Notes: generated by a model from the letters alone, not told the origin. 64,000 bases of DNA from Thermodesulfobacteriota bacterium (GCA_049320885.1 JBMORA010000001.1:402622-466621); one strand, 5' to 3'. Positions 37,184-63,049 are shown, counted from the first letter of the stretch. Program-made: numbers and translations.

Positions 37184-37651
37184 TTAAAAGGGCGACCCGG
37201 ACTTGGGCGGCGCCAAATCCGCCACCCACCTCCCGTCTTCCTGAAGCCAATTTTCCTGAAGGATTGCCCCGGGTATCAGAAAACCCATCTGCTTGATATC
37301 GAACCGGACGCTCACCTTGGCCCTGGTTTTATCCTCTGAGAACGTAATCCCGGCGATTTCGAATTTCTCAATCCGTGAGCGGCATTTGGACCGGTTGTCC
37401 TCCAGGGTAACCTGCCGGCGGTAGAGAGCTGAAGCGTTTTCGTAAATGACGTCGCAATCCCCGTCCACTTTGGCCTGCCAGACCACCGCCACCCGTTCCC
37501 GCAAATCCTGTTCGGACACTTTCGGAAACAGATGCGCGCAACCGAGAAAAGCGAAAACCAGCGCCCACGCCGCGATGGCCATCCCCATCGCAGCAAATCG
37601 GGCGCCGATGCCACCAAGCCCGTGATCGGATCTCTTTTTTTCCATCGCCAC
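37184..37651 (-). CDS. Putative lipoprotein (NTF2-like small domain)
   Basis: Hydrophobic signal ending in lipobox FLGC; LRERV..W.AK and W...DG.W pattern. Confidence 0.7.
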   Translation of the reverse strand: MAMEKKRSDHGLGGIGARFAAMGMAIAAWALVFAFLGCAHLFPKVSEQDLRERVAVVWQAKVDGDCDVIYENASALYRRQVTLEDNRSKCRSRIEKFEIAGITFSEDKTRAKVSVRFDIKQMGFLIPGAILQENWLQEDGRWVADLAPPKSGSPF

Positions 37652-37662
37652 TTCCTTCGTCT

Positions 37663-38625
37663 TTACCGGTTCCCCGATGTCCTTCTTTTGGCCAGGTTGC
37701 GTTGTGTCTCGAATTCTTTTTCCAGGGCATCAAATTCCGGATCCGATGCCACGGACGGTGTCAATTCCTTTAAAAAGCTTTCCTGCCGCTCGATTTTCCC
37801 GTTCCGGTCCAGCCATATCCGGATGACCCCCACATGTTTCCCGCCCATGCTGGATTTCAGCAGAATCTTGCCATGGACCACCGCCGGCTCGAAATCATAA
37901 TAATACTGGTGTCCCACGATGATCACATCGATGCCGTCCACCTCATTCGCCAGTCGCACGCTTTCGTCCCAGCCGGCATGGGACAGCAGGACAACGAGGC
38001 CGGTTTCCTTTTTCAGGGCCGGCAGGACGGCCTTCAGGGATGAAACCATATCCCGCACTTCGATTCCATCCGCACCTGTCCGGGCCGGGTCCGTGAAACC
38101 GGCGGAAACGACCCCCACCACGCCGATCTTGACGCCGTTGACGGTTTTCGTATGGTAGGGTTTCCAGGCGTATTCCTTGCCCACAAAGGTATTCGAGCCG
38201 ATGAAACCCGGCTGAATCGAGTCCCGGAAACGCTGCAAGAAAGGCAGGCCATACCCCAGCTCACCGTCCGCGACATTCATGGCGTCATATCCCAACATCT
38301 TCAGGGCTCTTGCGGTAAACTCGGCCCTCAGTTCCGCCGGTTCTTCCTGGCTCCAGAAAAAATCCCCGGCATCCACCAGCAGGATGTCGCCGTATTCCTT
38401 CCGCAGCTCCGCAACATAGCCGGCCCGCCGGGCCAGCCCGCCAGGGGCGTTCGTTGCTCAGCCAAAGCATTTGATATGCCCCTGGCCGTCGCTGGTGTAG
38501 GCGATCACCACATCCGGCGGGGCGGCCTGTTTGCTTTCCGCGCCCTGGCCCGGGCCCACGGATCCGAGGCCCACCGCCAGAACCAGAACAACGCTCCATA
38601 ACCGACAGGAAAAGAAACACCTCAT
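37663..38625 (-). CDS. UshA-like (5'-nucleotidase N-domain) secreted selenoprotein, Sec56 in a CxxU motif
   Basis: ORFs 38458-38652 and 37663-38376 are in frame across a single TGA (38460-38458): YTSDGQGHIKCFG-U-ATNAPGGLARRA...LLVDAGD. GAGGAGAGG RBS; signal peptide; SECIS-like hairpin downstream. Confidence 0.88.
38411..38457 (-). promoter_or_regulatory. Candidate bacterial SECIS element
   Basis: Directly 3' of the UGA: outer GCAAC/GUUGC stem and inner GCUGGCCC-[GGC]-GGGCCGGC stem; the apical loop starts with G, 28 nt after the UGA. Confidence 0.72.
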
Positions 38626-38676
38626 GAATGACCTCTCCTCGTAACCTGACACTCAACCAATGAACCATATTCCATC

Positions 38677-38711
38677 ATTCGTAATTCGAAATTCCTAATT
38701 CGTAATTCCGA
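38677..38711. repeat. Tandem heptamer array (ATTCGTA consensus, 5 units)
   Basis: ATTCGTA ATTCGAA ATTCCTA ATTCGTA ATTCCGA. Confidence 0.85.
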
Positions 38712-38718
38712 TTTGCTT

Positions 38719-41184
38719 TTACCGGTACAGTTCCGCTCCGCTGAGCAACCCGAGGCTCCCGTCACCATAGAGGAAAAGTCCCATGATGCCGTTGCCGTCG
38801 GCGGTGATCCGCACCCAGGGCAGCTCCGGCAAGCGGGTTTCCGGGAAAACCTCGCCGAGGTTGAAAACGGCCTTGGTAAAAGGCGCAACGGTCAAAACCA
38901 CCTCCTCCCCCGGCACCATTTCACCGTTCCGGCCCATGGGAGTCAGGGTCACCGCAACACCCATCGGCCCCGGGTTGTACAGCGCGACTCCGGTCCACCA
39001 ATCGCCGTCCCGGGCGATGTGGGGAATGGCCAGTTGATTCACGCCCTGATCCAGGGCCATGAGTTCAAAAGCCGCGCTGCTGACGGCGGTCTTATAGGTG
39101 AAATAACCGGCGACGGGGGTCTGGGCGGTGATCTGCAGGGCTCCCTGGGCCAGCTCCTCCTCCGTCATCGCCGGAAACAGGTCGACGATGGACCGGGTTG
39201 TTTTTTCATAGGGCATCAACTCCAGCGGAACCGGTTCGCCGCCCTGGCCATTCACCATCCGGCATTCAACGGCATTGACGGCGCCGCCCGGATTGATCAA
39301 GGTCATTTCCGTACGCCAGACGCCGGAAACCGCCACATGGGGAATGATCATCCGGGTATCGGTCCGGGTCAGGGCAAACAGGCTGTCCGGACCGCCGGAA
39401 TCGTTTTTGAGCCAGCGGGAAAAGCCGTCCACGCCGGCAGCGGTGTCCGGGACAGAGGTCTGCACGTCGATCCAGCCGTTTTCAATGGCTTTGTAAAACG
39501 GATTGGCGCTGGGCGAGTACCGCAGGACGGAACCGGCCGGAAGATGGATGCCCGCCTGGCGCTCCGGTATTCCCTGGGCGCTGTACAGCAGGCAATTCAA
39601 CTCCACGGCCTGGGCGAAGCGGTTGACCAGCCCCCAGGTGACGACCTTGCTGGTGGAAAAAAGTCCGGAAGTATCGGGTATCATCCATCGTCCGGCGCCG
39701 GATCCGCCGGGCTGGCCGAAACCGGCCAGGCTTTGCCGGCCGATGCCGTCCAGGGAAATCATCGCCGCCGGGTCGTCGCATAACAGTTTCAGGGCCTTGA
39801 TCGAGGCTTTTTCGTGCAGACGCATGGGCAGGCTTTCCGCCAGCCAGACATCCTTTTGCCGGGGGCCGATTTCGTAAGGCCCCTTGAGGGTGGCCACAGG
39901 CCGGGAGGCGCTGTCATAGGCGACGATCTGGACATCGGTGAGCGGGAGATCGAAGGTATTGGTGATGGCGACCCCGTTCCAGGCCGATCCCTTTTGAAGA
40001 TCGGGAATCCATTGTTCGTTGGCCTTGGACTGGTCGAAAACGATGCGGTAAATTCCCCCTCCGCCGTAGTTGTCGCGGCGGACGTTCAAGCGATAGGGTG
40101 GATTTTCCGCTGCAAGGGTCAGGGTGGCCGTATCATTGAGTTCCGCCTGCCATACCATCCGGCCGGCCGCATCCAGGAGGTCAATCCGGATGCCGTCCTC
40201 CAGGGTATCGATCTTCTCGAACCCAAACGCCAGCCGGTCGCCGGAACCGGCGTTGATGGTATAGGCATCCTCGTTCAGCAATATCAGGTTGTAATTGCCC
40301 GGCGTCAACTGCACGGCTCCCGTGTTTTCCAGAAAATCATCCTTGTGCAGGGAAATGGACCGGATCAGCTCATAGTTGAGAAAGGGATTGGTGGCCTGGG
40401 GCGCCAGCGGATAAAATACCGAGCGGGGCGGGCTCCCGGCGCTGGTGCCGGTCCATTCGCCGCCGGTGATTTCATTCCGGGCGTTGAGATAGAGAAGATA
40501 GGTGTAAATCTTTGTCTTGACCACCGTACCCTGGATATCCGGATGCACGTTGTCGTCGGCGTACCAGATCTGGCAACGCACCTCCTTGCCGGCACTGGTG
40601 TTGGTGAGCTGCATGTCATACTGGAAAATGGGGTAAAACCAGGCTTCCGTGGCCGAACCGAGATTGGCCACAAAGGCCCGGCGGTGAACCTTGATATAGT
40701 TCAACAGCCAGGCGTGAAAAATCTCCGGGTTGTACCGCACCGATTCGCTGATGGTCAGGTCGCTGCCATGGCAGGCGGAGAGCAGGCCTTTTTTGTCCCC
40801 CACCCGGAAAATGATATTATTGTAGGAAGAGGGGTAAAAAACGATGTTTTCATAGGCTGCGGCCGCGGCCCAGGCATGGCATTGGCCGTTCCAGCTTTCC
40901 GCGTCCGGGTCGTAATGGTTGGCCAGTTCCCACTGGGTGGTGGCGCCCGGATAGGTTCCGGTGGTCAGCAGCTCGAACTTCTCGGTGGGCGCCGGATGGC
41001 CGAAATTGGCATAGCCGTTGGCCAGGGCGCCGCTTCTGGTGGACCACCAATAGCCGGACCAGGGCCGAAAATAGGTTTCCGCCGCATCCGTGCCGGCCAG
41101 GGCCTGGAACGGCGGAGCCAACAAAACCGCCCACAACACGGAGGTCATGACAAGGGCGGCTGCATGGAAGGTCTTGGTTTTCAT
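38719..41184 (-). CDS. Secreted protein: N-terminal GP42/elicitor-type transglutaminase-like domain plus four C-terminal beta-rich repeats
   Basis: Signal peptide; PWSGYWW, SWNGQCHAWAAAA, FRVGDKKGLL, NPEIFH, AWFYPIFQY, YTYLL..N...EITGGEW. Confidence 0.78.
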   Translation of the reverse strand: MKTKTFHAAALVMTSVLWAVLLAPPFQALAGTDAAETYFRPWSGYWWSTRSGALANGYANFGHPAPTEKFELLTTGTYPGATTQWELANHYDPDAESWNGQCHAWAAAAAYENIVFYPSSYNNIIFRVGDKKGLLSACHGSDLTISESVRYNPEIFHAWLLNYIKVHRRAFVANLGSATEAWFYPIFQYDMQLTNTSAGKEVRCQIWYADDNVHPDIQGTVVKTKIYTYLLYLNARNEITGGEWTGTSAGSPPRSVFYPLAPQATNPFLNYELIRSISLHKDDFLENTGAVQLTPGNYNLILLNEDAYTINAGSGDRLAFGFEKIDTLEDGIRIDLLDAAGRMVWQAELNDTATLTLAAENPPYRLNVRRDNYGGGGIYRIVFDQSKANEQWIPDLQKGSAWNGVAITNTFDLPLTDVQIVAYDSASRPVATLKGPYEIGPRQKDVWLAESLPMRLHEKASIKALKLLCDDPAAMISLDGIGRQSLAGFGQPGGSGAGRWMIPDTSGLFSTSKVVTWGLVNRFAQAVELNCLLYSAQGIPERQAGIHLPAGSVLRYSPSANPFYKAIENGWIDVQTSVPDTAAGVDGFSRWLKNDSGGPDSLFALTRTDTRMIIPHVAVSGVWRTEMTLINPGGAVNAVECRMVNGQGGEPVPLELMPYEKTTRSIVDLFPAMTEEELAQGALQITAQTPVAGYFTYKTAVSSAAFELMALDQGVNQLAIPHIARDGDWWTGVALYNPGPMGVAVTLTPMGRNGEMVPGEEVVLTVAPFTKAVFNLGEVFPETRLPELPWVRITADGNGIMGLFLYGDGSLGLLSGAELYR

Positions 41185-41207
41185 GGGTAAGAAAATCGTT
41201 TCGGAGA

Positions 41208-41855
41208 TCAATGGGTTTCCCGCCAGGATCGACGATCGCCGGTGTCTTCGTAGAGCCACCACCGGTCGCCCTCGGCCCATAGCTGACGGACGCGGATGGA
41301 TTTTCCATAATGAACGGAAACCAGTTTCAGGACACGGCCCGTGTGGACATGGGCCTGGTCCGGCGGAATCATTTCCCGGGCCACGGCTTCCGCCAGGGTG
41401 ATGGGGCGGGTCTCTTTGTCGAGGTGATAGGCAAACCCGGTGTCGCCGACCAGTTTGCGACTGACGGCTTGGGTCTGGCCGCTGTCTCCGGGGTTCAGAT
41501 CGTCCAGGGGAAACGGATAGCCCCAGGAAAGGGTGATGGTTTCTTCCGCCCGGGTGTCATGGGTGTAGATGCCGGACAGCCGGTCTTCGATTCTCATCAG
41601 GCGGCCGGTAGCCGCATATTGGAGCATCAGGTCGGGCTGGGCCTGATCGTTGCGGAAAACGGCGTAGGAACCGGATTCCCGGGGAACAAGGCGCCATTTG
41701 ATTTCATTGTCCCAGGCCTGGGTAACGGGATTGAGGTAGCGGCTGCGGATGACGATCCCGGCCGGCTCCGCCGGAGCCGTGGCCGCGAACAGTGCAGCGA
41801 GTGCCGATGTCACGGCGAAAACGATGCTAATGATCTTAAATGGTTTCATTTTCAC
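41208..41855 (-). CDS. Secreted hypothetical protein
   Basis: 215-aa ORF with a signal peptide, colinear within the operon. Confidence 0.7.
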   Translation of the reverse strand: MKMKPFKIISIVFAVTSALAALFAATAPAEPAGIVIRSRYLNPVTQAWDNEIKWRLVPRESGSYAVFRNDQAQPDLMLQYAATGRLMRIEDRLSGIYTHDTRAEETITLSWGYPFPLDDLNPGDSGQTQAVSRKLVGDTGFAYHLDKETRPITLAEAVAREMIPPDQAHVHTGRVLKLVSVHYGKSIRVRQLWAEGDRWWLYEDTGDRRSWRETH

Positions 41856-41879
41856 AATTCAAAACCTGCCGCCCAAAAT

Positions 41880-41973: not shown

Positions 41974-43812
41974 TTAGTTGTTCCACTGGCTGGCGTTGGT
42001 GTAGGCCGTGTAACCGGTGCTGTCGGACCCGTTGCCGGTCATGCCGAAACCGCCGGCGCTGGCGAACTGGGTCACCACCACGATGTGGCAGGACGAGTCG
42101 CCCAAGGTGCCGGTGCCGGCAGTCTGGGTCAGGTTGGCCAGCAGCGTGGAAGCGCCGTATACCGCCAGTCCGCCCGCCGCGATGGAAGGCGTGGTGTAGG
42201 TGCCGACGTCGCCGTCAGACTCGTATACCGTCACCGCGGCGGTGCCGGCGGCTGAAGACGGGTTGCCGATGGTCATGCCATACCACCATCCTTGGGAACC
42301 ATCCAGCGCAACCGCATAGGGATAGTACAGGGTGGTGGTGGGTACGGAAGCCGCACAGGTATCGACGAATTCGGCGATGATGCGGTCGTCGGTGAAAATC
42401 AGGCCGCAGGGCAGTCTGTACAGTTCCACGGTGACGGTGACCTGGTCGCCGTTGTCGAACTGGGCCGGGTCATAGACGACCAGCGGGACATCCACGCGGA
42501 TCACGTTATCGGTGTCGATGCCGGTGAAGGCAGCAGCGGTGGTGAATTCCACCACGCGTTCGCCTGCGGGAATGGCCTGGCAGTCAGCACCGCTGGCATA
42601 GCCGGTAACCGCAACGCCGGTTTCCGTGGCCGGGGTGCCCAGGGCCACAACCGCCGTGCCGGGATCCGAGCAGGGATCTTCGCTCGGCAGGAAGGAAGCA
42701 GCGGTCGGAGCAGCGGCAAAATAAGCGCCGTCGCCGGAGATCGTCAACGTCAAACGGTATTCGTCGTTCGGGTTGAAGAAGGTGCCGCTCTGGTTTTCGA
42801 TCAGCAGGGTGTTGCCGCCGAAGGTGGTGGAGGTGCAGTAGGAAGCTGCCGTCTCATAGTTGAAGGTACAGGAAGAGCTCTGGCCGCCGGCCGGTTCCAC
42901 ATAACCGTACAGATCACCCTTGCAGGCGTCCAGAACGATGGTGGTGGCCGCGATCAGATGGGCAACCTGGGGGTTGGAGGGGTTGAAGGTCAGGAAGTTG
43001 TTGCCATCCACACCGCCGGAGTTGATGCTCACGTTGATGGTGGTGCCGCTGTACTGGGCGCTGTTCACCGTCACGCAGATGTTGTTGTCCCAGTCGGCGT
43101 TGTACTGCAGCACGTCCGCGGCAGCGCCGGGACCGGCAATGCCGTCGCCGTAGATGCCGTCGCCGTCATAGTCCTTGACCGCCAGCTGGGCGCCGTTGGT
43201 GGGCACGGTGACGCCGTCATGGGGGTTGTTGTCGAACAGTTTGATCTGGAACTCGGTGCCGGGCTCGACGGTGAGGGAAGAAGAACCGTCATAGTTGGCG
43301 GCATTGTTGATGCCCAGGGCGTTGTCTTCGTCGTAGACATCGATGCGGATCCGGCTGGAGCCGCTGGTGCCGCGCACGCGGAAAACGATTTCCTGACCGG
43401 CTACGGTGATGCCGGCGTTGGTGCCGTCACCCACGGTGCCGACATCCTTGATGGCCCACAGGTAATTGTCAACCACCGCGCCGGTGTCGCCGATATCGGT
43501 GGTGGCGAAGCCGGAGTTGCCGGCGGGCAGGGGCACGGTGTCGGCGCCCAAGGCCGCGCCCAGGACCAGGAAGTCAAAAGACTGGCAGAGGGTGACGCCC
43601 AGGGGCATGTCCATGGTGACCCAGTCGCCGTCACGCAGCACGGTGCCGCCGTCGAAAATCAGGGTGACGTTACCGGTTTTTTCACAGGCATTCGCCGCAG
43701 CGGTGATGCCTTCCGAGTTGGTTTTCACTTCGACCTGTTGCGCGGCCATCGCGGACATGGTGATTCCCATGACCAGCATCAACGCCGCCATGACTACAGT
43801 AAATTTTCTCAT
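41974..43812 (-). CDS. Probable S-layer / major surface protein
   Basis: GGAGGA RBS; Sec signal peptide; very acidic, T/G/A/V/D-rich, few K/R; strongly C-ending codons; DYDGDG Ca-binding-like loop; no C-terminal TM anchor; followed by strong hairpins. Confidence 0.65.
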   Translation of the reverse strand: MRKFTVVMAALMLVMGITMSAMAAQQVEVKTNSEGITAAANACEKTGNVTLIFDGGTVLRDGDWVTMDMPLGVTLCQSFDFLVLGAALGADTVPLPAGNSGFATTDIGDTGAVVDNYLWAIKDVGTVGDGTNAGITVAGQEIVFRVRGTSGSSRIRIDVYDEDNALGINNAANYDGSSSLTVEPGTEFQIKLFDNNPHDGVTVPTNGAQLAVKDYDGDGIYGDGIAGPGAAADVLQYNADWDNNICVTVNSAQYSGTTINVSINSGGVDGNNFLTFNPSNPQVAHLIAATTIVLDACKGDLYGYVEPAGGQSSSCTFNYETAASYCTSTTFGGNTLLIENQSGTFFNPNDEYRLTLTISGDGAYFAAAPTAASFLPSEDPCSDPGTAVVALGTPATETGVAVTGYASGADCQAIPAGERVVEFTTAAAFTGIDTDNVIRVDVPLVVYDPAQFDNGDQVTVTVELYRLPCGLIFTDDRIIAEFVDTCAASVPTTTLYYPYAVALDGSQGWWYGMTIGNPSSAAGTAAVTVYESDGDVGTYTTPSIAAGGLAVYGASTLLANLTQTAGTGTLGDSSCHIVVVTQFASAGGFGMTGNGSDSTGYTAYTNASQWNN

Positions 43813-44024: not shown

Positions 44025-44051
44025 AACCGCGCCTGGTGTGCCGGCGCGGTT
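44025..44051 (-). terminator. Hairpin downstream of the CAP-domain gene
   Basis: AACCGCGCC ... GGCGCGGTT inverted repeat with only a short U tail. Confidence 0.4.
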
Positions 44052-45562: not shown

Positions 45563-45578
45563 TGCAACGAAAATGCCA
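45563..45578 (-). promoter_or_regulatory. sigma54 (-24/-12) promoter
   Basis: TGGCATTTTCGTTGCA, i.e. GG-N10-GC with TTGCA; AT-rich tract upstream (about 45628-45660); NtrC-type activator encoded nearby. Confidence 0.65.
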
Positions 45579-45820
45579 TCCATTCCCGACGCGGTTACCC
45601 TCCTCCGATCCGATCGTTCATTTGCTGGATAACAATCCGTTTTTATATTATATATTCGTTCAGAAAAAACTGCGCTGATGGGTCCCACCCCCCTGTTTGC
45701 CCAGCGGTGCGGTTGCTTGCCGCCGTTTCGATTGGCTAGATTTAGCCAGCCATGGCTGATTTCGACCAGCTTCCCGCCGGCGACATTCACTTTCCGTTTC
45801 GCTCTATCCGAACCGCCCAT

Positions 45821-48005: not shown

Positions 48006-48072
48006 AACCGATTTGATTCCCATCCAAAACGACCCGCATCCGTCATTCGCGATTGCCGATCCGTCATATCCC

Positions 48073-49416: not shown

Positions 49417-49512
49417 TGTCTTCACTCCTTCCAATCGGATATCTTTCCCCCCGCCTTCCCCCCTCTGCGTCGACCGTGGGCCGCAACCGGCTTCTTGCCG
49501 CATGGTGCATGA

Positions 49513-55018: not shown

Positions 55019-55039
55019 GCGCGATTTTTCATGCCCCGG

Positions 55040-55630
55040 TCACCGAATTTCCTGATTCTTCATTTTCTTTTCCGGTCTTTTCATATAACCCGAAACGGTC
55101 ATGCTGGCCGTCAGCACATCCGGTCCGGCCGCTTCCATGCGAAGCAGGCGCATATCGACAATCGCCAGCAATTTCGGAGCGGATTCAATTCTATACAAAA
55201 AAGTTCGCAATTGCGCGACATTCATCCGGGTCGTGATCTGGACAGGAATTTCAAGATAGTCCTTTTCCGGCTCTTCCCTGGTTTTCAGAACCAGTTGGGA
55301 TAGAATTTCCAAGCCGTTTGCCTGGGCGATCTCATTGATCACATTCTGAATGCTCACCGCGGCCAGAGCCGGTGTGGCCCCATCCAGCAGCGCCTGTTCG
55401 GCCTGCTCCAGACGCCGGGTCAGGATCATGTTGCGCTCCTGAATCCGGCGGCGTTCCGCCACTTTCTGCCGGTAGCGCTCCACGGTTTTCATTTTCACAT
55501 CCAGCTCCCCGCCATCGGGCAGGAGGCCGGCGACATCCGGATAGAAGCGATACACCAGGCCCAGCAGGAGCAGGAGGCCGCCCACCGCCAAAATGATTTT
55601 CCTTTCCTTGGTTATCTCGAACCCAGCCAT
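55040..55630 (-). CDS. gspM: Type II secretion GspM-like protein
   Basis: TKERK-TM, coiled coil, LRTFLYRIES...L.I..M; located after gspL. Confidence 0.8.
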   Translation of the reverse strand: MAGFEITKERKIILAVGGLLLLLGLVYRFYPDVAGLLPDGGELDVKMKTVERYRQKVAERRRIQERNMILTRRLEQAEQALLDGATPALAAVSIQNVINEIAQANGLEILSQLVLKTREEPEKDYLEIPVQITTRMNVAQLRTFLYRIESAPKLLAIVDMRLLRMEAAGPDVLTASMTVSGYMKRPEKKMKNQEIR

Positions 55631-55657
55631 GGCCGCCACTATCTCCGAATTCAATTT

Positions 55658-57100: not shown

Positions 57101-58153
57101 TCACCTGGCAACGGGCATATGGTCAAACCATTGCACGATACGATATTTTTCCTTGGATTTCAAATCAAGATAGATCATCGCGCTGATTTCCTGACGCACC
57201 TTTCCTTCGGCGAACAGCCCCCGGGACGTAACCCGGAAATACGGCGACAGGGAGAAGGTGATATAATTCTGCGTGGCGGCGTAAGCCTCGGCGCCCACAA
57301 GTGTCAGGTAATCCCCGTTGGAAGCGATGTCCTTTTCCCGCCGATAGGTATGGACCGCTGCCACGATTTCAGGGGTGAAACCCGGCAATAAGAGCAACAG
57401 CGCCGGCGGAGCCGCATTGATGTTGAATTTGTTGTAATTAAAACCGGTTTTGGCGACGGCGGCGCCTGGAGCGGCGCCTGTTTTTGTTTCCACGGCCTTT
57501 CTCGAGGGATATACCGTGACCGTCTGCCGGAAACATTCGTGAAAAATACCCGGGGTGATTCCTTTTACCAGCAGAAGCTCTTCAACGCTGTCAAAATCAC
57601 CGTTTTTGCAGTGGTAGGGGTTCGGCAGGGACTGGTAGTAGTCCTCCTCGGCGCCGTGCATGCGATGGAGGTCGTCACTGTCGCGCCAGTCCATAATCGA
57701 ATCCACGATGGCGCTCTTTTCATCCTCGCTGATCGGAAGCCCCTTCAGGAGAAGGAGGATCAGCGCCTGGTCGGCAAGATTGATATTCACTTTGCCGCCT
57801 TCGTTGTCGATCCTCACCATGATCTGTCCTTCTCCGAAAGGAATCGCCGGGATTTCGGTATTGACGCGCCAGTCGATGTCAGCCCCCTCCTCTTTCGCCA
57901 CTTCCGAGGCGGGGCGGGGATTGAACATCGTCCGCAGCATCTGGTAAACGGTCAGATGGATGCCCCCCAAAGCCGCATAATATCCCTGGCTGGTTTCCTT
58001 GAAATTCCGGGCGATCATCAATTCCGTGCGCATGGAACGAGAGAATTCGGCGGCGATGACGGACAGGAAAGCCAGCACCCACAGCACCAGCAGCAGGGCA
58101 ATCCCTTTTTGATTGCAAGTATCCCCCCGCGGTTTCATCCTATCTGCCCTCAT
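57101..58153 (-). CDS. gspK: Type II secretion minor pseudopilin GspK
   Basis: GIALLLVLW, EGGKVNINLA, DWRDSD, GAEEDYY, VEELLLVKG, NINAA. Start 58153 or 58138. Confidence 0.92.
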   Translation of the reverse strand: MRADRMKPRGDTCNQKGIALLLVLWVLAFLSVIAAEFSRSMRTELMIARNFKETSQGYYAALGGIHLTVYQMLRTMFNPRPASEVAKEEGADIDWRVNTEIPAIPFGEGQIMVRIDNEGGKVNINLADQALILLLLKGLPISEDEKSAIVDSIMDWRDSDDLHRMHGAEEDYYQSLPNPYHCKNGDFDSVEELLLVKGITPGIFHECFRQTVTVYPSRKAVETKTGAAPGAAVAKTGFNYNKFNINAAPPALLLLLPGFTPEIVAAVHTYRREKDIASNGDYLTLVGAEAYAATQNYITFSLSPYFRVTSRGLFAEGKVRQEISAMIYLDLKSKEKYRIVQWFDHMPVAR

Positions 58154-58172
58154 GATGTTTCGCCGATGGTTC

Positions 58173-58820
58173 TCACAATCCCAAGCTGCGAACGGGGATG
58201 ACGGTAACGATGGGAAAGTCATCCGCTCGATCCTGAATGCTGATCTTCACGGCCTGGGGAAGACCTTCTTCCGCTGCCGGGTCCCATTGCGGCTGCCAAT
58301 CATAGATGTTCTGCGTATCCGGGGGCTTTAAAAACTGAAAAAGGATCGAATGCATCCCTGCCAGCAGCCTGCGTCTTCCGGTCTCTGGTGCCGTCGCATC
58401 GACATCCACAGGTGCCGCCGCCGTGGGCGCCTTTTCCTCGATCAGAAACAGTTCGGCCCCTTGGGAGGTCTCCTCGACGATATATTGACTGTAGACATCA
58501 CCGAATCGGTTCCGTGGATCCAGCGCCAGTTTTGAAATCATGGACATTCGTTGCTCATGGCCCTCGAAAGCGGCCGGTTTTTCCGAGCTTCGGAGTACTT
58601 CCAAGGGGGCCAGGGAAGCGATCTGCTTTTTCATCAATTCTAGGACGACGCGCAGGCGCTGTTGCCGTTCGATGTCCCGCTCCCCCCTTTCCCAGGCCCG
58701 CAGTCCAACCCTGAATATCCCGAAAATCAAGCCGATGATGATGGCGGTGATGGCCATGGAAAGCAGCAGTTCCAGCAGGGTAAAACCGCCGCCACCTTCC
58801 CGTTGGAGTTTATTTTTCAT
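58173..58820 (-). CDS. gspJ: Type II secretion pseudopilin GspJ
   Basis: GFTLLELL prepilin motif; W..QW...LPQAVKI. Confidence 0.85.
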   Translation of the reverse strand: MKNKLQREGGGGFTLLELLLSMAITAIIIGLIFGIFRVGLRAWERGERDIERQQRLRVVLELMKKQIASLAPLEVLRSSEKPAAFEGHEQRMSMISKLALDPRNRFGDVYSQYIVEETSQGAELFLIEEKAPTAAAPVDVDATAPETGRRRLLAGMHSILFQFLKPPDTQNIYDWQPQWDPAAEEGLPQAVKISIQDRADDFPIVTVIPVRSLGL

Positions 58821-59256
58821 CGGCCAGCCTTGCCGCCAATGCCAGGGTTTGCAGGTCGATCCGGCGTTGCCGTTCGCCGTCCGTCCAGGACACCTCCAGC
58901 TTTACATGAAACGGTTCGGGTTCGTCAGGCAGGATTTCCACTTCCTCCGGTTCCAATCGGGCGATCTCCGCTTTCCAGGAAAAACCGTCCTCCCAGCGGC
59001 CTTCGATCATGGTATCCTCCATCCGGGTCGCCAGAAGGATTTCCTCCATTTTCTCGCGGGCGTGGAAGACGGCCCGGGTATACCGATCCGCCAGGAAAAC
59101 CGCCCCCAGCCCTCCGGAGAAAAGCCGCAGCAGGATGATCAGCGCCGTGGCCAGAATCATGGTGGCGGCCAAGGTCTCGAAAAGAGTGAAACCGGCGGCG
59201 TTCGATGCGCAAACCGGAATCCGGTATGGCCAGCGGAAGACGTGTCTGCGTCGCAT
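58810..59256 (-). CDS. gspI: Type II secretion pseudopilin GspI
   Basis: GFTLFETL prepilin motif; short protein; position in operon. Confidence 0.82.
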   Translation of the reverse strand: MRRRHVFRWPYRIPVCASNAAGFTLFETLAATMILATALIILLRLFSGGLGAVFLADRYTRAVFHAREKMEEILLATRMEDTMIEGRWEDGFSWKAEIARLEPEEVEILPDEPEPFHVKLEVSWTDGERQRRIDLQTLALAARLADEK

Positions 59257-59796
59257 TCATTCTCCCAGGGACACGGCGCCGGTGATGGAATCGACCTCCA
59301 CGCGGCGGCTTCGGCCCATGGCGTCGCTCAACCGGATATCCGCGCCGGTGCAGTTGCCGATGGGGAAAAAAGTGATGATATCGATATCCGTTTCTAACGC
59401 CTCCTCCGGACCGGGCTCACAGGCGAGGGTCAGATTCACCGGCAGGTGATAGATTCGCTCGACGCCGTCATCGATTTCCTTCGACTCCGCCGCCGCATCG
59501 CCTTCCGGCGCTTTGGGAACGGCAACAAAAATCCGCCGGTCTTCGGGTTGGAACCACACCGCCATGGAACAGCTTCGGCTGACGGCCTGGCTGCGGGCGA
59601 ACCGCATGATTGCCGCAAGATCCCTGGCCGCCGTAACCAGAGGCAGTTTTTCATAGGAGCCGGATAAACGGGGAACCGCCATGGCCGCCATCAAACCGAC
59701 CAGCACCAGCACCACCATCATCTCCAGCAGCGTGAAACCCGCGGCATCTTCTTCATCACAACGCCCTCCGCGCGGCAAATCGGCTTCGGCAATCAC
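59257..59796 (-). CDS. gspH: Type II secretion pseudopilin GspH
   Basis: GFTLLEMMVVL, ARSQAV, ITFFPIG; GTG start just after the gspG stop. Confidence 0.85.
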   Translation of the reverse strand: MIAEADLPRGGRCDEEDAAGFTLLEMMVVLVLVGLMAAMAVPRLSGSYEKLPLVTAARDLAAIMRFARSQAVSRSCSMAVWFQPEDRRIFVAVPKAPEGDAAAESKEIDDGVERIYHLPVNLTLACEPGPEEALETDIDIITFFPIGNCTGADIRLSDAMGRSRRVEVDSITGAVSLGE

Positions 59797-59797
59797 G

Positions 59798-60226
59798 TCA
59801 TTCCAGATTTTTCCAGCTGACGACATCCTCGTCTTCCCCCTCTCCTCCGGGACTGCCATCCGCTCCATAGGAAAGGATATCAAAGTCGCCGTGCTCTCCC
59901 GGCGAACGGTACTCATACGGCCGCCCCCATGGATCCGTGGGGATATCCTTGGGCAGATAGGGGCCTTCCCATTTTTCCGCATCGTCCGGTTTGACGCGCA
60001 GGGCCGTCAGTCCCATTTCGGTTGTGGGATATTTCCCGACATCCAGACGATAGGTATCCAGGGCGGTTTCAAACAGGGATATCTGGGCCTTGGCCGATTT
60101 CTGCTTGGACTTGCCGACCTTGCCGAACATTCTCGGCCCCACCAGGGCGGCCAGCAACCCCAGAATCACCATGACAATCAACATTTCAATCAGCGTAAAC
60201 CCTTTTTGGTCTTTTCCGATCTTCAT
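59798..60226 (-). CDS. gspG: Type II secretion major pseudopilin
   Basis: GFTLIEMLIV, ALDTYRLDVGKYP, GPYL, DPWGRPY, SYGADG. Confidence 0.97.
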   Translation of the reverse strand: MKIGKDQKGFTLIEMLIVMVILGLLAALVGPRMFGKVGKSKQKSAKAQISLFETALDTYRLDVGKYPTTEMGLTALRVKPDDAEKWEGPYLPKDIPTDPWGRPYEYRSPGEHGDFDILSYGADGSPGGEGEDEDVVSWKNLE

Positions 60227-60237
60227 TCTCGCTTCCC

Positions 60238-61467
60238 TTAAAATGGTAGTTCATTCATGCTGAAAATGGCCATCAGCATCGAAATGACGATGAATCCGAC
60301 CACCACCGCCATAAGCAAAATCAATGCCGGCTCCAACAGGCTGATAAAGCGTTTCACCAGGTTTCGCAACGATTTTTCATAATTGTCCGCCACCCGCAGC
60401 AGCATTTCCTCCAGCCGGCCGGTCTCTTCTCCCACGGTGATCATCTGAAGCGCCAGGGAGGGGAAGACACCGGCGTGTTCGAGCGTTTTCGACAGGCGAT
60501 CCCCGGCCTTCACCCGGGTGTGGACCTGGTTCATGGACTGGGAAACGATCTGGTTGGCCAGTACATGGCGCACCAATTCAATTCCCTGCAAAATCGGAAC
60601 TCCGCTGCGGATCAGGGTGCCCAGGGTTCTGGCGAATCGGGCCACTTCCGCCTTTTTCACCAACTCCCCGATGAAGGGCAGGCGCAACTTCAGGGAGTCG
60701 ATGGACATCCGTCCCTTCTCCGTGCCCCGATAGCGGCGGAAACCGAATACCGCCAGGATCAATGCTCCCAGCAGAAGCCACCAGTAATTTCGTAACAATT
60801 CACTTCCTGCCAGCAAGAGACGGGAGGATAACGGGATGGAAGCACCCATATCCGAGAAAATGAAAGCGAATTTAGGAATCACGTACGTTATCAGGATGAT
60901 AATGGATATCCCGCTTACACACACCAGGAAGACGGGATACACCAACGCCGACTTGATAAAATCCTTCAAATCCTGGGAGCTTTCCAGGTACCCGCCGAGT
61001 CGTGAAAGCACCTCCTCCAAGACGCCGCCGGCCTCTCCGGCCCGCACCATGTTTACGTAAAAATCTGAAAAAACATCCGGGTTCTTTGCAAGGGCATCGG
61101 AAAGATAGGCCCCTCCCTGAACCGCGGCCAACATTCCGGCGATAATGGTCTTGAATTTCTTTTTTTCAGTCACCTCCACCAGGATGGCCAATGCCCGGTC
61201 GACAGGCAGGCCGGCTTCCAGCAGCGCCGAAAGATCCTGCGTGAACATCATGACATCCTTGCCGCCGATCCCCCCGAAGATCATGCCCGGCAGTTCCGCG
61301 GGATGATATTGAAACAGGCGCATCTGTTTTCCCGCCGGTGATATCCGGATCGGAATCAGGCCCATTTCCTGAATGCGCGCGGCCGCCGCCGATTCGTCCG
61401 CCGCGTCCAGCACCGCCCGGACAATTTTCCCGCTCGAATCCGATGCTTTGTAAGAAAAAATCGCCAT
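60238..61467 (-). CDS. gspF: Type II secretion inner membrane platform protein
   Basis: FTQDLSALLEAGLP, AGEAGG.L, ARTLGTL..SGVP, VGEETG.L, LLEP. Confidence 0.96.
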   Translation of the reverse strand: MAIFSYKASDSSGKIVRAVLDAADESAAAARIQEMGLIPIRISPAGKQMRLFQYHPAELPGMIFGGIGGKDVMMFTQDLSALLEAGLPVDRALAILVEVTEKKKFKTIIAGMLAAVQGGAYLSDALAKNPDVFSDFYVNMVRAGEAGGVLEEVLSRLGGYLESSQDLKDFIKSALVYPVFLVCVSGISIIILITYVIPKFAFIFSDMGASIPLSSRLLLAGSELLRNYWWLLLGALILAVFGFRRYRGTEKGRMSIDSLKLRLPFIGELVKKAEVARFARTLGTLIRSGVPILQGIELVRHVLANQIVSQSMNQVHTRVKAGDRLSKTLEHAGVFPSLALQMITVGEETGRLEEMLLRVADNYEKSLRNLVKRFISLLEPALILLMAVVVGFIVISMLMAIFSMNELPF

Positions 61468-61497
61468 AATGCTGTTTACAATCGACTCCCATCCACC

Positions 61498-61532
61498 ATT
61501 CGTAATTCCCAATTCGTAATTCGTAATTGCGT
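61498..61532. repeat. Tandem heptamer array (ATTCGTA consensus, 5 units)
   Basis: ATTCGTA ATTCCCA ATTCGTA ATTCGTA ATTGCGT. Confidence 0.85.
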
Positions 61533-63049
61533 TAATTATCGAGCGTCACCCGCAGCACTTCCTCAATGGTGGTGATGCCGGCCTTGACTTTGCGCCAGCC
61601 GTCTTCCCGCAGCGTGATGACGCCTTTTTCCTGGGCGATCTTCTTGATGCGCTCGGTGCTGGACCGGTTGGTGATCTCCCGCCGGATATCTTCATCCACC
61701 CCGATGTATTCAAAGATACCGATTCGGCCGCGATAGCCGGTAAAATGGCAGGTTTCACAACCCGCGCCGCTGAAAAAACGGATTCCAGCCAGTTCCTTCG
61801 GCTGAATGCGCATGGGGCGCAATAATTTGTCATCCGGCCGGGTCTCTTCTTTACAGTCCGCACAAATGACCCGGACGAGTCTCTGGGCCAGGATCCCGAG
61901 CAGGGTGGAACTGAGCAGAAAATGCTCGACCCCCATGTCCATCAGACGCGTGATGGCGCCGGCCGCGTCATTGGTGTGCAGGGTGCTGAACAGCAGATGC
62001 CCGGTCAGGGCGGATTGAATGGCGATCTGGGCCGTCTCCTGGTCGCGGATTTCACCCACCAGAATGATATCCGGGTCCTGCCGGACGATGGAGCGCAGTC
62101 CGTTCGCGAAATTCAGGCCGATTTTTGGATTGACCTGCAGTTGATTCACCCCCATCAATTGATATTCCACCGGATCTTCCAATGTGATGATTTTGCTTTT
62201 GGGCGAGTTGATCCGCTCCAGGGTGGCATATAAAGTCGATGTCTTTCCGCTTCCGGTGGGCCCCGTCACCAGGATCATACCGTAGGGCTGACGGATAATG
62301 TCCAGATAGCTTTCCAGAATGTCTTCGGGAAAGCCGATGGCGTGGAAATCCAGGACCAGGGAACCGCGATCCAGGATACGCATGACCAGGCTCTCACCGA
62401 ACAGAGTCGGCAGGGTCGAAACCCGGAAATCGATTTCCCGTTCGGCGATCTTGATTTTAATCCGGCCGTCCTGGGGCAGGCGCCTTTCGGCGATGTCCAG
62501 CTTGGCCATGATTTTCACGCGGGAAATGATGGCGGCCTGCAACCGCACCGGAGGAGACTCGGTCTCGTGGAGGATACCGTCGATACGATACCGCACCTTG
62601 AAGGCATTTTCGAACGGTTCGAAATGAATATCGCTGGCCCGCTGCTCGATGGCGTTCAGGATCAGGCGGTTCACCAGGCGAATGATCGGCGCTTCGGACG
62701 CCAGATCGCGCAGATGGTCGGCGTCCTCGTCCATGTAGGAAGTCAGGTCCTCCACATTTTTCCCGGCTTCCTCAATGATCATGTCCATGCTCTGGCTGCC
62801 GGCGCCGTACAAACGGTCGATGGCATCCTGGATATCCTCCGGTTTTCCAGGGCAGGTCTCAATCCGAAAGCCATAGGCGAAAGCGAGGGCTTCAACCGTA
62901 TAAAAATCGCCCGGGTCCGCCATGGCGATTCGCAGGATATCGCCATCCAGATGGATCGGCACGAAACCGGACGTCTTCATGAACTTGATCGACAGGTTGT
63001 CGATCACCACGGGCTCCTTGGGGTAGTCGGCTGAGGATAATGGGGTCAT
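61532..63049 (-). CDS. gspE: Type II secretion ATPase
   Basis: ASDIHFEP, RLPQDGR, GPTGSGKTS, LEDPVE, RQDPD..VGEIRD, TGH..STLH, CxxC..CxxC. Confidence 0.97.
   Translation of the reverse strand: MTPLSSADYPKEPVVIDNLSIKFMKTSGFVPIHLDGDILRIAMADPGDFYTVEALAFAYGFRIETCPGKPEDIQDAIDRLYGAGSQSMDMIIEEAGKNVEDLTSYMDEDADHLRDLASEAPIIRLVNRLILNAIEQRASDIHFEPFENAFKVRYRIDGILHETESPPVRLQAAIISRVKIMAKLDIAERRLPQDGRIKIKIAEREIDFRVSTLPTLFGESLVMRILDRGSLVLDFHAIGFPEDILESYLDIIRQPYGMILVTGPTGSGKTSTLYATLERINSPKSKIITLEDPVEYQLMGVNQLQVNPKIGLNFANGLRSIVRQDPDIILVGEIRDQETAQIAIQSALTGHLLFSTLHTNDAAGAITRLMDMGVEHFLLSSTLLGILAQRLVRVICADCKEETRPDDKLLRPMRIQPKELAGIRFFSGAGCETCHFTGYRGRIGIFEYIGVDEDIRREITNRSSTERIKKIAQEKGVITLREDGWRKVKAGITTIEEVLRVTLDN

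Follow-up and report, generated by a model that had tools for sequence, protein, structure and literature searches.

In Aeromonas salmonicida, the A-layer genes and their type II secretion system (T2SS) are described as lying between wzm and wzt (PMC4483657), and in marine Gammaproteobacteria a conserved T2SS operon is followed directly by the gene for Slr4 (PF19526), a protein of ~59 kDa with a Sec signal (PMC7821379). Slr4 is reported there to be abundant, to have had no Pfam domains when it was found, and to come almost only from Gammaproteobacteria. The A-layer island of A. salmonicida and A. hydrophila, with vapA and a dedicated Sps T2SS inside a wzm/wzt O-antigen cluster (PMC4483657), combines three elements that the locus analyzed here also contains: its own T2SS operon, one gene for a major exported surface protein (here, as a candidate, the 612-aa exported protein, P612) and an O-polysaccharide cluster of the ABC-2-transporter type. 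The likeness is one of gene content, and phylum and lifestyle differ. The linkage of T2SS, cargo and O-polysaccharide parts is conserved in related loci. The original prediction held that S-layer T2SSs and Wzm/Wzt were known just separately, which the A. salmonicida locus, as given in PMC4483657, contradicts. Beyond that island, our locus encodes a substrate-binding protein (SBP), a kinase, a sigma54 regulator, a TonB receptor, a CAP protein, and LolA-like, transglutaminase-like and selenoprotein products. The arrangement is known from other bacteria but has unusual extra parts here; UshA-like selenoproteins are already catalogued.

Our preferred reading, to which we give a rough probability of 45%, is that of a surface coat that is induced through sigma54, exported by the T2SS, bound to the neighboring O-polysaccharide and conserved in Desulfobacterales and relatives; such a locus would have its counterparts in the Aeromonas A-layer and Slr4 loci. 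All of its genes lie on the minus strand of a 26-kb segment at 37184..63049 of the window (the whole stretch of 64,000 nucleotides that was analyzed), in the order gspEFGHIJKLMCD, SBP, histidine kinase, sigma54 regulator, TonB receptor, promoter, CAP, P612, a 215-aa protein (P215), the transglutaminase-like protein (TGL), the UshA-like selenoprotein and a lipoprotein, matching gene for gene the run that had been predicted (Table 1). This is a genuine gene cluster, common to many sulfate-reducer relatives and beyond chance, since the order of all 20 genes is identical in a congener (G001) and parts of it are found again on dozens of named Desulfobacterota contigs.

Table 1. Features of the locus and of its flanking polysaccharide cluster, in window coordinates
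Feature	Coordinates	Strand	Basis
gspE, T2SS ATPase	61532..63049	-	TIGR02533 662.5 bits (cut-off 630.25); Pfam T2SSE E 1.5e-143
gspF, inner-membrane platform	60238..61512	-	TIGR02120 410.8 bits, slightly below cut-off 424; Pfam T2SSF, two stretches
gspG, major pseudopilin	59798..60226	-	TIGR01710 177.1 bits (cut-off 88.85)
gspH, minor pseudopilin	59257..59982	-	best family GspH/XpsH, below equivalog cut-off
gspI, minor pseudopilin	58810..59256	-	best family XpsI, below equivalog cut-off
gspJ, minor pseudopilin	58173..58820	-	best family GspJ, below equivalog cut-off
gspK, minor pseudopilin	57101..58222	-	best family GspK, below equivalog cut-off
gspL-like, PilM/PilN fusion	55658..57058	-	PilM_2 and PilN matches
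gspM	55040..55654	-	NF040576 82.5 bits (cut-off 60)
gspC-like	54296..55018	-	GspC_delta just 25.7 bits (cut-off 150)
gspD, secretin	51938..54292	-	TIGR02517 429.6 bits (cut-off 351.35); N0, Secretin_N, Secretin domains
SBP (ABC_sub_bind), likely co-sensor	50931..51926	-	PF04392 E 7.5e-19
Sensor histidine kinase, HAMP-HisKA-HATPase	49513..50934	-	Pfam domain matches
Sigma54-dependent response regulator, NtrC/AtoC type	48073..49503	-	Response_reg, Sigma54_activat, AAA_lid_14, HTH_8
TonB-dependent receptor	45900..48080	-	Plug and beta-barrel domains
Two adjacent palindromes, TGGTCGAAATCAGCCA and TGGCTAAATCTAGCCA	45733..45768	.	candidate activator-binding site, read from sequence
Sigma54 (-24/-12) promoter, TGGCATTTTCGTTGCA	45563..45578	-	single perfect TGGCAT-N5-TTGCA
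Secreted protein, two CAP/SCP domains	44096..45547	-	PF00188 57.9 bits, 2 stretches
Hairpin between CAP and P612 genes	44025..44051	-	inverted repeat read from sequence
P612, 612-aa exported protein, candidate major surface subunit	41974..43812	-	ATG at 43812
P215, 215-aa exported protein	41208..41855	-	LolA/vitellogenin-type open beta-barrel fold
TGL, 821-aa GP42-type transglutaminase-like protein	38719..41184	-	PF16683 (TGase_elicitor) 46.7 bits; C-terminal beta-sandwich repeats
UshA-like selenoprotein	37663..38625	-	in-frame TGA (Sec) 38460-38458, motif CFGU
Small lipoprotein, 155 aa	37184..37651	-	L-G-C lipobox read from translation
ABC-transporter-type polysaccharide cluster	20571..36006	-	Pfam matches
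Wzm	33159..34010	-	Pfam match
Wzt with Wzt_C	31808..33289	-	Pfam match

The T2SS is complete. GspE (88% identical to its counterpart in the congener), GspG, GspM and GspD exceed their NCBIfam cut-offs, and for the minor pseudopilins Pfam GspH, N_methyl and T2SSK_1st exceed their gathering scores. The gspG gene, left unnamed in the original prediction, was found at 60226-59798. The genome has at least two T2SS-like clusters including this one, which makes a dedicated role plausible. We infer that the cargo is exported by this T2SS: the operon products, all with predicted Sec signals (that of the CAP protein seen by eye), would exit across the outer membrane through the adjacent machinery.

The locus encodes its own sigma54 regulator with Response_reg, Sigma54_activat and HTH_8 domains, as had been claimed, and the SBP gene stands directly upstream of the kinase gene in related loci too. 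The perfect -24/-12 site, also part of the earlier claim, lies 16 nt ahead of the CAP start codon, and rpoN is encoded in the genome. Within the window the pattern is no more frequent than chance would give (3 one-mismatch sites, 5.0 expected), so the site's credibility comes not from pattern frequency but from conservation ahead of CAP in other genomes: the identical element is found there in the congener and in a second genome (G029), and the strict pattern in 19 of 47 further loci. The two palindromes lie ~170 bp upstream of the promoter; the exact TGGCTA-N4-TAGCCA is found a single time, both in the window and in the 5.6-Mb genome as a whole, and similar palindromes precede CAP in other loci. 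The SBP and histidine kinase may sense a signal and phosphorylate the NtrC-type regulator, which would bind these palindromes and turn the operon on, giving a first mRNA that would be nearly leaderless at CAP. The hairpin between CAP and P612 was not scored as a terminator in the terminator scan. Environmental RNA contigs, from four metatranscriptome runs of one study that were picked using the P612 gene as query, span 41928-43959, covering this gene nearly end to end and in some cases without any difference; they show transcript presence and cannot rank expression.

A sigma54 two-component pair near polysaccharide genes and exported proteins is also a feature of PEP-CTERM/exosortase systems with PrsK/PrsR. 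On TIGR02915 our regulator reached 393 bits, below the cut-off of 502.6, with an AtoC-type family as its best match, and neither an exosortase nor a PEP-CTERM tail was seen in the locus translations read, in line with the original prediction, which noted neither in the window.

The main product of the operon would be P612, an acidic protein of ~60 kDa (pI 4.05) with abundant Gly, Ala and Thr and 1% Lys. It has no Pfam match; a word search puts 25 clusters in its family and a profile search 436 representatives. The AF2 model (pLDDT 83) is all-beta, and its fold matches are the Ig-like sandwiches of adhesins and pilins (PrgB Ig domains, Z 9.0; BcpA pilin, Z 8.8; AgI/II), and for the C-terminal part TM1070 (Z 8.8) and a CBM (Z 6.8). 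The S-layer identity put forward in the original prediction met with no sequence match, as the S-layer Pfam families including Slr4 hit neither P612 nor 68 sampled family members, and PF19526 hit nothing in the genome. One Slr4-domain model aligns to P612 residues 408-607, and in an ESM Atlas feature search P612 scored 0.96 to its nearest clusters, where the Slr4 domain is present in 15-20% of members, a language-model lead only; S-layer identity is therefore an interpretation. Calling the layer Cys-rich was an overstatement: Cys makes up 1.9% of the mature protein (11 among the 612 residues).

We infer that P612 forms the surface layer or coat, that it is anchored to glycan and that TGL cross-links it. 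A C-terminal sandwich domain common to P612 and TGL would probably tether both to the Wzm/Wzt O-polysaccharide, and the GP42-type Cys enzyme may cross-link or trim the coat protein. Several points weigh against a coat: the predicted P612 fold gives middling matches (Z about 9), to adhesins and pilins rather than lattice proteins; constitutive S-layers are not usually under a two-component sigma54 switch; the ten conserved Cys of P612 are atypical of S-layer proteins; the putative shared domain aligns with an hhalign probability of only 62% (E 7e-5); and the TonB receptor has no part in the model.

Two sugar or glycan gene sets do adjoin the locus below 36 kb, as had been stated, including Wzm and Wzt together with genes for a Sel1-repeat protein, a radical SAM protein, a rhamnosyl O-methyltransferase-like protein, methyltransferases and glycosyltransferases. 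In many related loci the module is again followed by Wzm, Wzt and a 202-aa methyltransferase. The window holds no O-oligosaccharyltransferase gene, and none of the genome's 4 Wzy_C genes falls in it, leaving the proposed glycosylation without in-cluster support; anchoring of P612 to the O-polysaccharide would be the simpler reading.

A reading that we judge rather unlikely is an inducible system of the biofilm-matrix or adhesin kind, in which P612 and its partners would not form a lattice and would instead be released into, or decorate, the exopolysaccharide of the neighboring cluster. It would follow the example of Vibrio cholerae, in which T2SS-secreted matrix proteins act with VPS under a sigma54-type regulator. 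Such a system would account for the adhesin and pilin folds, for conditional expression through the predicted sensor kinase, sigma54 promoter and upstream activator site, and for the polysaccharide genes that follow the regulator block even in loci in which no 612-aa gene was detected. According to PMC7821379, Slr4 itself is a main constituent of the biofilm matrix and is shed from cells. A Wzm/Wzt pathway with Wzt_C and a rhamnosyl O-methyltransferase-like gene, however, is typical of capped O-antigens and not of free exopolysaccharide. Nor does this alternative separate sharply from a surface coat.

The assignment of TGL as transglutaminase-like stood up, at the level of sequence. Its N-terminal ~330 residues align in three segments with the Ca2+-dependent transglutaminase GP42 of Phytophthora sojae (3tw5; profile E 7.4e-17). 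Opposite the nucleophile of GP42, which is Ser in the crystallised chain, stands a Cys invariant in 28/28 aligned proteins. The Cys-His pair, the CH motif described for GP42 transglutaminases in PMC10318531, is kept in the locus protein. Unlike GP42, TGL has ~490 extra residues of beta-sandwich repeats, and the His follows the Cys in just 11 of 28 aligned relatives. TGL could be a peptidase instead.

Conservation was assessed in 80 loci retrieved through the TGL gene, many on short contigs, among which we found CAP in 47, P612 in 43, the selenoprotein in 38, the lipoprotein after it in 38, P215 in 31, the receptor in 30 and the regulator in 27. As predicted, the genes form a conserved unit across Desulfobacterota; a lack of co-occurrence did not arise. 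Of 10 genomes with the TGL gene that were checked, 8 have GspD beside the regulator block (3/5, then 5/5 further genomes). Among the 301 genomes sampled in the class, 68 have a receptor ortholog, including all 28 in which the TGL gene was found. The T2SS/regulator block is not bound to the P612/TGL cargo alone, since 40 sampled genomes have the receptor block without the TGL gene. In the fetched stretches of 10 of these 40, P612 and TGL profiles found neither protein; among these 10 loci, a CAP-like gene follows the receptor in 7 and a T2SS gene is absent directly upstream in 5 or 6.

These patterns would also fit unrelated neighbors, that is, a general T2SS, a two-component system and an LPS cluster kept together by descent, with an inserted mobile cargo module. 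The module is patchy (28/301 genomes, 20/126 genera), sits between CAP and the glycan genes in the manner of an insertion, and in G029 lies on a different contig (CAP to selenoprotein) from the T2SS-SBP-kinase-regulator-receptor block. We consider this improbable, as all 28 module-bearing genomes have the receptor block, the unlinked G029 module retains the same promoter and palindrome while the regulator ortholog (62% identical, runner-up 46%) stays with the T2SS, and our genome has another T2SS-like cluster.

Least probable is nutrient scavenging as in the TonB-receptor/T2SS loci of Xanthomonas, where secreted enzymes free a compound that the receptor imports and the SBP and kinase sense: the receptor, SBP, kinase and regulator do stay in one block with the T2SS and two cargo proteins belong to enzyme superfamilies (papain-like Cys enzyme, UshA-like esterase), but the main cargo, transcribed and conserved, has no enzyme fold, the downstream linkage is to glycan synthesis and not catabolic genes, and of the motifs that we take to be canonical the UshA-like protein reads ADGE by eye in place of GNHE and its orthologs lack the DxH histidine.

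The UshA-like protein best matches NF041198 'PCGU' and NF049981 family 2, with Sec or Cys in C-x(1,2)-U before a GG motif; such families are listed among prokaryotic selenoproteins (PMC13188914, PMC2398784), these two in PMC13188914. Its NF041198 score of 144.7 bits is under the cut-off (275), the match extends over no more than the N-terminal 280 of 519 profile positions, and the motif is CxxU, not CxU. Judged by its conservation, the UGA is a genuine Sec codon: 34 ortholog alignments span the site, 30 with TGA and 4 with Cys, and selB is in the genome. This bears out the CxxU selenoprotein first proposed; the part in thiol chemistry proposed with it is putative. For P215, VIA gives the model (pLDDT 91.8) fold matches to the vitellogenin N-sheet (Z 10.0), DUF1849 (Z 8.0) and LolA (Z 7.5-7.3).

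Read as an inducible surface-coat system, exported by its own type II secretion system (T2SS) and anchored to O-polysaccharide, the locus makes the best sense of its genes, and we give this reading a probability of roughly 0.45, as its architecture matches the Aeromonas A-layer and Slr4 kind of system. According to the available parts of the sources, the A-layer gene vapA of Aeromonas salmonicida and the T2SS genes dedicated to it (spsE-L) are flanked by wzm and wzt within an O-antigen cluster of the ABC-2-transporter type (PMC4483657), and in Pseudoalteromonas tunicata a conserved T2SS operon is followed immediately by the gene of Slr4, an S-layer protein of ~59 kDa (PMC7821379). As in those loci, a T2SS operon is linked here to the gene of an exported surface protein; the operon is the locus's own, is tied to a candidate layer gene and is conserved, as in S-layer systems of the Aeromonas/Slr4 type. 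All genes named in the original prediction are present on the minus strand, from 63049 down to 37184. It knew of no description of the combination, and literature searches, which left most subscription journals outside their reach, returned none either.

Genes were identified with Pfam and NCBIfam profiles at curated cut-offs, and the features are collected in the table. With GspG found, which the original prediction had not listed, the T2SS appears complete except for the prepilin peptidase, and the sole Peptidase_A24 gene of the genome lies outside the cluster, at 43429-43752 of contig C12 of the window's own genome (G000). Of the components expected of a Gsp system, GspE, GspF and GspD, GspG with minor pseudopilins, and a peptidase encoded elsewhere are present; for the assembly platform there are a clear GspM, a PilM/PilN-type protein in the GspL position and a weak GspC-like match. 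The same genome holds a second T2SS-like cluster at C18:72762-81317, with a GspE-like ATPase (48% identity), a secretin and a GspK-like gene, and more sets of pilus-type ATPase and secretin on contigs C12, C63 and C14. The regulator has all three domains of an NtrC-family sigma54 activator, and rpoN is in the genome. It scores 393.4 bits against the PEP-CTERM regulator PrsR (TIGR02915), below the cut-off of 502.6, and because no PEP-CTERM tails were seen in the translations either, the PEP-CTERM/exosortase reading was rejected, in agreement with the original prediction, which had seen neither an exosortase nor such a tail. All six cargo proteins begin with a signal peptide or lipobox, as judged by eye, and Rfam gave no family at gathering scores over 36500-64000.

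Features of the locus and its surroundings. The last column counts loci with a tblastn match among 80 loci found through the transglutaminase-like protein; many of these contigs are a few kb long, and the 10-kb flank stops inside the binding-protein gene, so that the T2SS is outside the view.
Feature	Coordinates	Strand	Description	Loci of 80
GspE ATPase			TIGR02533, 662.5 bits (cut-off 630.25)	
GspF platform			410.8 bits, slightly below cut-off 424; Pfam T2SSF E 4e-61	
GspG major pseudopilin	60226-59798	minus	177.1 bits (cut-off 88.85)	
GspH, I, J, K minor pseudopilins			correct best matches and N-methyl motif; scores below equivalog cut-offs	
GspL position			PilM/PilN-type protein	
GspM			82.5 bits (cut-off 60)	
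GspC-like protein			weak match, 25.7 bits (cut-off 150)	
GspD secretin			429.6 bits (cut-off 351.35)	
ABC_sub_bind periplasmic binding protein		minus	downstream of T2SS genes	20
HAMP histidine kinase		minus	after binding protein	24
sigma54 regulator		minus	receiver, sigma54-interaction and HTH_8 domains	27
TonB-dependent receptor		minus	after regulator	30
-24/-12 promoter	45578-45563		TGGCAY-N5-TTGCW, single perfect site in window, 16 nt upstream of CAP start codon	
CAP protein			cargo gene 1 after promoter; two CAP domains	47
CAP/612-aa spacer	43813-44095		283 nt; hairpin 44025-44051	
612-aa protein			cargo gene 2	43
215-aa protein			cargo gene 3	31
821-aa transglutaminase-like protein			cargo gene 4, TGase_elicitor	
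UshA-like selenoprotein			cargo gene 5; in-frame TGA in motif C-F-G-U	38
Small lipoprotein			cargo gene 6	38
AT-rich repeats	38670-38720; 45821-45863		GAATTACGAAT-type	
Sel1-repeat gene, then TPR gene, then ABC-transporter polysaccharide cluster	below 36 kb		TPR gene oppositely oriented; cluster with Wzm, Wzt with Wzt_C, rhamnosyl O-methyltransferase-like gene, methyltransferases, glycosyltransferases	
Second sugar-modification set	9645-20519	plus	opposite in orientation to Wzm/Wzt cluster; methyltransferases, PHP-domain, ATP-grasp, family 2 glycosyltransferase, two DegT aminotransferases, WbqC, dehydratase, radical SAM	
722-aa ORF	7453-9621		without family	

The candidate coat protein, 612 aa long, has no Pfam or NCBIfam family. 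A word-based search gave 25 clusters of relatives, every one named hypothetical, and a profile search of 1.84 billion representatives gave 436 at E ≤0.001 (211 of them at E ≤1e-30), mostly 560-650 aa long. It is acidic (pI 4.05), and its mature chain is 35% Gly/Ala/Thr with just 1.0% Lys. Ten cysteines are invariant in a 26-row alignment of the family; the description "Cys-rich" was overstated, with 11 cysteines in total making up 1.9% of the mature chain. Three short stretches resembling the N-terminal domain (E 1e-10 to 3e-9) were also seen in a 934-aa ORF at ~44114-46918 of contig C31 (L098:4115-6919), which has no Pfam family and is flanked by an aldehyde ferredoxin oxidoreductase gene on one side and a CrtC-like gene on the other.

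The AlphaFold model of the 612-aa protein is all-beta (pLDDT 83.1, pTM 0.67). Foldseek matched it to antigen I/II C-domains, MSCRAMM adhesins, integrin leg domains and CFA/I pilins, at E of ~1e-6 to 1e-4 and low TM. With VIA-align, whose Z values here are middling on the tool's own calibration, residues 290-485 matched PrgB Ig-like domains (Z 9.0), the BcpA pilin (Z 8.8) and other Gram-positive pilins, and residues 490-598 matched TM1070 (Z 8.8), the Anabaena sensory-rhodopsin transducer (Z 8.6) and a Ruminococcus carbohydrate-binding module (Z 6.8). These folds would suit a matrix or adhesin system as the product of the locus, as would the report that Slr4 itself is also a shed component of the biofilm matrix of P. 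tunicata (available part of PMC7821379); we regard such a system as possible, if on the unlikely side.

In ESM Atlas features, the 612-aa protein scores 0.96 to clusters in which 15-20% of members have the Slr4 S-layer domain, and one Slr4-domain model aligns to residues 408-607, which we treat as a lead only. The Slr4 profile PF19526 matched neither the 612-aa protein nor anything in the genome at E ≤10, nor any of 68 sampled family members at E ≤0.01, and the family profile against PDB sequences gave solely a chance-level aldolase match (E 0.0047). The label "S-layer" of the original prediction is not supported by this profile test. The fold matches of the model, to adhesins and pilins and none to lattice proteins, argue against a classical S-layer, as do the absence of sequence matches to any known S-layer family, control by a sigma54 switch, the ten invariant cysteines and the TonB receptor, which the surface-coat model leaves unexplained.

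The 821-aa protein is predicted to be an enzyme of the GP42 type. It matches PF16683 at 46.7 bits (cut-off 25), and its profile aligns with the GP42 transglutaminase structure 3tw5 in three segments (E 7.4e-17). All 28 aligned proteins have the cysteine opposite the nucleophile position, and 11 of the 28, the 821-aa protein included, keep the Cys-His pair of GP42-type enzymes described in the available part of PMC10318531. Its C-terminal ~490 residues consist of repeats with a W-x-T/G-x-x-L/I-x-N-P signature and a weak DUF5719 match (E 0.012); in the ESM Atlas this half stayed below 0.9 throughout, with unnamed Acidobacteriota clusters and DUF5719. In profile-profile comparison, residues 681-810 align with residues 469-596 of the 612-aa protein (probability 62%, E 7e-5), so the two exported proteins probably end in the same sandwich domain. 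Given the likeness of this domain to carbohydrate-binding folds and the constant proximity of a glycan cluster, we propose that it may anchor both proteins to polysaccharide.

In Gram-positive bacteria, pilin-like folds are the substrates of covalent polymerisation, which makes cross-linking by the 821-aa protein an attractive idea by analogy and, if true, a new way to build a bacterial surface polymer. For the 215-aa protein, which has three word-sharing relatives in a large protein database and was therefore aligned from the fetched loci instead, the model is an open beta-barrel (pLDDT 91.8) with matches to the vitellogenin N-sheet (Z 10.0), DUF1849 (Z 8.0) and LolA proteins (Z 7.5-5.7), a predicted fold of the lipid- or lipoprotein-carrier type. 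A predicted complex of the 612-aa and 215-aa proteins (score 0.01, mark 0.32) was counted neither for nor against their pairing.

The fifth cargo gene encodes a selenoprotein, as judged from its homologs and the Sec machinery. Across 34 ortholog alignments spanning the site, 30 have TGA and 4 have Cys, TGA also being present in G029, a genome of another family in the same order, and selB is in the genome (371.7 bits, above cut-off). Folding for a SECIS element gave a hairpin after the UGA whose stability does not exceed that of shuffled sequence (z -0.67). Among families, NF041198 ("UshA-like (seleno)protein") matches best, with 144.7 bits over the N-terminal half of the profile only, below the cut-off of 275, so membership of that PCGU family was not accepted; NF049981 (family 2) gave 47.8 bits against a cut-off of 140. 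Canonical phosphoesterase motifs are GNHE and DxH; here, by eye, the GNHE position reads ADGE and the DxH histidine is not kept in orthologs, so classical esterase activity is doubtful. UshA-like selenoproteins appear in surveys of prokaryotic selenoproteomes, in the available parts of which they have no known function (PMC13188914, PMC2398784), and the locus supplies a first genomic context for one branch of them. The genome has a further UshA-like paralog at 351997-352854 of contig C9, which shares 31% identity with the selenoprotein of the window.

Genomes with the receptor block and without the transglutaminase-like gene help to separate the parts of the locus. In ten such loci, the order binding protein, kinase, regulator, receptor is kept in all ten, and in 7 a CAP-like gene follows the receptor. 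Sugar-nucleotide and Wzm/Wzt genes come after that. The 612-aa and transglutaminase-like family profiles found no match in these loci. A T2SS gene stands directly upstream in 3 and on the opposite strand in 1 more, and none was seen in the short upstream stretch of the remaining ones. Downstream of the module (the cargo genes after CAP), Wzm homologs with 41-80% identity lie on its strand in 13 loci, Wzt homologs are found in ~20 loci, and a 202-aa methyltransferase in 15. We picture a conserved platform of T2SS, sensor/regulator, receptor, CAP and glycan cluster, with the module genes inserted between CAP and glycan genes in a subset of lineages. Glycosylation of the 612-aa protein, as the original prediction had it, lacks local support, as the four O-oligosaccharyltransferase/ligase (Wzy_C) genes of the genome all lie outside the window (C1:402622-466621), the nearest at C1:130331.

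The original prediction had made its case depend on these genes occurring together in other genomes, and they do so in a class-wide sample, in the 80 loci and in a congener. That congener (G001) has all 20 of 20 genes in identical order, with identities from 88% for GspE through 47% for the 612-aa protein and 32% for CAP to 29% for the lipoprotein. The transglutaminase-like profile, run against one genome per GTDB species, found 173 relatives, of which 80 loci were kept and scored for the window's genes by tblastn; their contigs are labelled Desulfobacterales, Desulfosudis, Desulfatiglandales, Desulfonema, Desulfococcus, Syntrophales, Thermodesulfobacteriaceae and others. GspD is directly beside the regulator block in 3 of 5 genomes of a first set, 41 kb off on the same contig in one of the other two, and in the last on a contig that cannot be related to the locus; in all 5 genomes of a second set, drawn from four families, it shares the receptor's strand and sits 3.9-4.2 kb upstream of it. 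Among 301 genomes spread evenly over the class, all with a completeness of 85% or more, 28 (20 of 126 genera) have the transglutaminase-like gene and 68 a receptor ortholog; comparison of the lists places all 28 within the 68, and the gene in none of the other 233, a pattern rather than a statistic, related genomes not being independent. Functionally unrelated neighbours would fit the split locus of G029, where GspE to the TonB receptor lie on one contig and CAP to the selenoprotein on another; set beside the nested distribution, this explanation seems unlikely.

The -24/-12 element before CAP also occurs in G001 (TGGCATGTCTTTTGCT) and G029 (TGGCATCACGATTGCA), and the strict sigma54 pattern was found before CAP in 19 of 47 further loci, with a chance expectation by our own arithmetic of ~0.004 matches per 510-nt stretch. 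In 17 of the 19 it lies 26-85 nt ahead of the estimated CAP start, estimates that are rough, being taken from tblastn ends. Palindromes of the TGGCTA-N4-TAGCCA type, frequently paired, lie ~170-220 bp upstream of the promoter: TGGTCGAAATCAGCCA and TGGCTAAATCTAGCCA in the window, and TGGCTAAATTTAGCCA in G029. The pattern was matched in 6 of the 19 promoter-bearing loci, with like sites by eye in further loci, and the exact palindrome occurs once in the window and once in the whole 5.6-Mb genome. An activator site upstream of a sigma54 promoter is the classic NtrC-type layout. In G029, promoter and palindrome are kept at the unlinked CAP module, and the ortholog of the regulator, with 62% identity to that of the window versus 46% for the next best match there, remains next to the T2SS, which argues that this regulator would drive the CAP operon. 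A genome-wide search for promoter plus palindrome gave one other pair only, at C9:274130 (L097:631), before a 139-aa ORF without family and near a BrnT-like toxin gene and an AAA_21 gene; in this toxin-antitoxin-like setting it was taken as chance.

The start codon of CAP follows closely on this promoter. In 11 of 12 loci listed, among them the window (45547-45578) and the fetched stretches L018, L019, L022, L028, L031, L037, L046, L048, L061 and L066, the distance from TTGC of the -12 element to ATG is 13-16 nt. Given the usual spacing from -12 element to transcription start, this leaves a leader of a few nt, into which a Shine-Dalgarno site does not fit, so the CAP mRNA would be nearly leaderless and lack a ribosome-binding site, an unusual and conserved trait for a sigma54 promoter if so. 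A nutrient-scavenging locus, which could accommodate the binding protein and the TonB receptor and is set against the main cargo protein, which has no enzyme fold, and the glycan genes, is quite unlikely.

Within the surface-coat reading, a stronger version would see a new Desulfobacterota surface-layer family, in which a T2SS-exported protein of pilin/adhesin fold is covalently polymerised on O-polysaccharide by a GP42-type transglutaminase, with the Sec protein as extracellular redox partner, a sigma54 two-component switch and a leaderless transcript. Sortase-built pili would then have an isopeptide-linked counterpart in Gram-negative bacteria; we consider this version a long shot. The T2SS, NtrC-type regulators, the TGase_elicitor domain, UshA-like selenoproteins and the link between S-layer, T2SS and O-antigen are known parts. 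What appears to be new is their conserved joining in Desulfobacterota, the 612-aa family, a bacterial GP42-type enzyme that shares a domain with its presumed substrate, the genomic context of the UshA-like selenoprotein, and the conserved layout of promoter, palindrome and leaderless start. Desulfobacterota surfaces are involved in aggregation, syntrophic contact, mineral interaction and phage defence, and to our knowledge almost nothing is known of the envelopes of the sulfate-reducing and hydrocarbon-degrading members. As a candidate for a major surface structure in many of them, the locus is specific enough to be tested, with regulator, candidate binding site and promoter named, and it gives a functional context to more than 400 uncharacterised ~600-aa proteins and to a bacterial branch of GP42 transglutaminases.

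The 612-aa gene is transcribed in nature. A search with the 612-aa and CAP genes found contigs from RNA libraries in several studies, and four metatranscriptome runs of one study, chosen with the same query, were aligned to 36500-56400. RNA contigs cover the 612-aa gene over 41928-43959, nearly without gaps in two runs, and for several pieces the difference from the window is just 0-2 letters; one piece extends to 43959, 147 nt upstream of the 612-aa ATG. CAP is covered by one piece of ~250 nt in two runs. In the four runs, the transglutaminase-like, selenoprotein, T2SS and kinase genes are uncovered save for fragments of other organisms of at most 50 nt, an absence that proves nothing in runs selected by a 612-aa/CAP query, whose contigs cannot rank expression. 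The 612-aa transcript is apparently more readily assembled than that of CAP in the same operon, and an internal promoter or processing site in the spacer between the two genes would explain its better cover.

AT-rich repeats are found in the gap that separates the transglutaminase-like gene from the selenoprotein gene and, in G001, upstream of CAP (L007:13060-13210). RNA contigs of other organisms touch 38677-38709 and the second repeat stretch of the window by short parts, with unlike sequence on either side, which suggests that these repeats are small, widespread intergenic elements.
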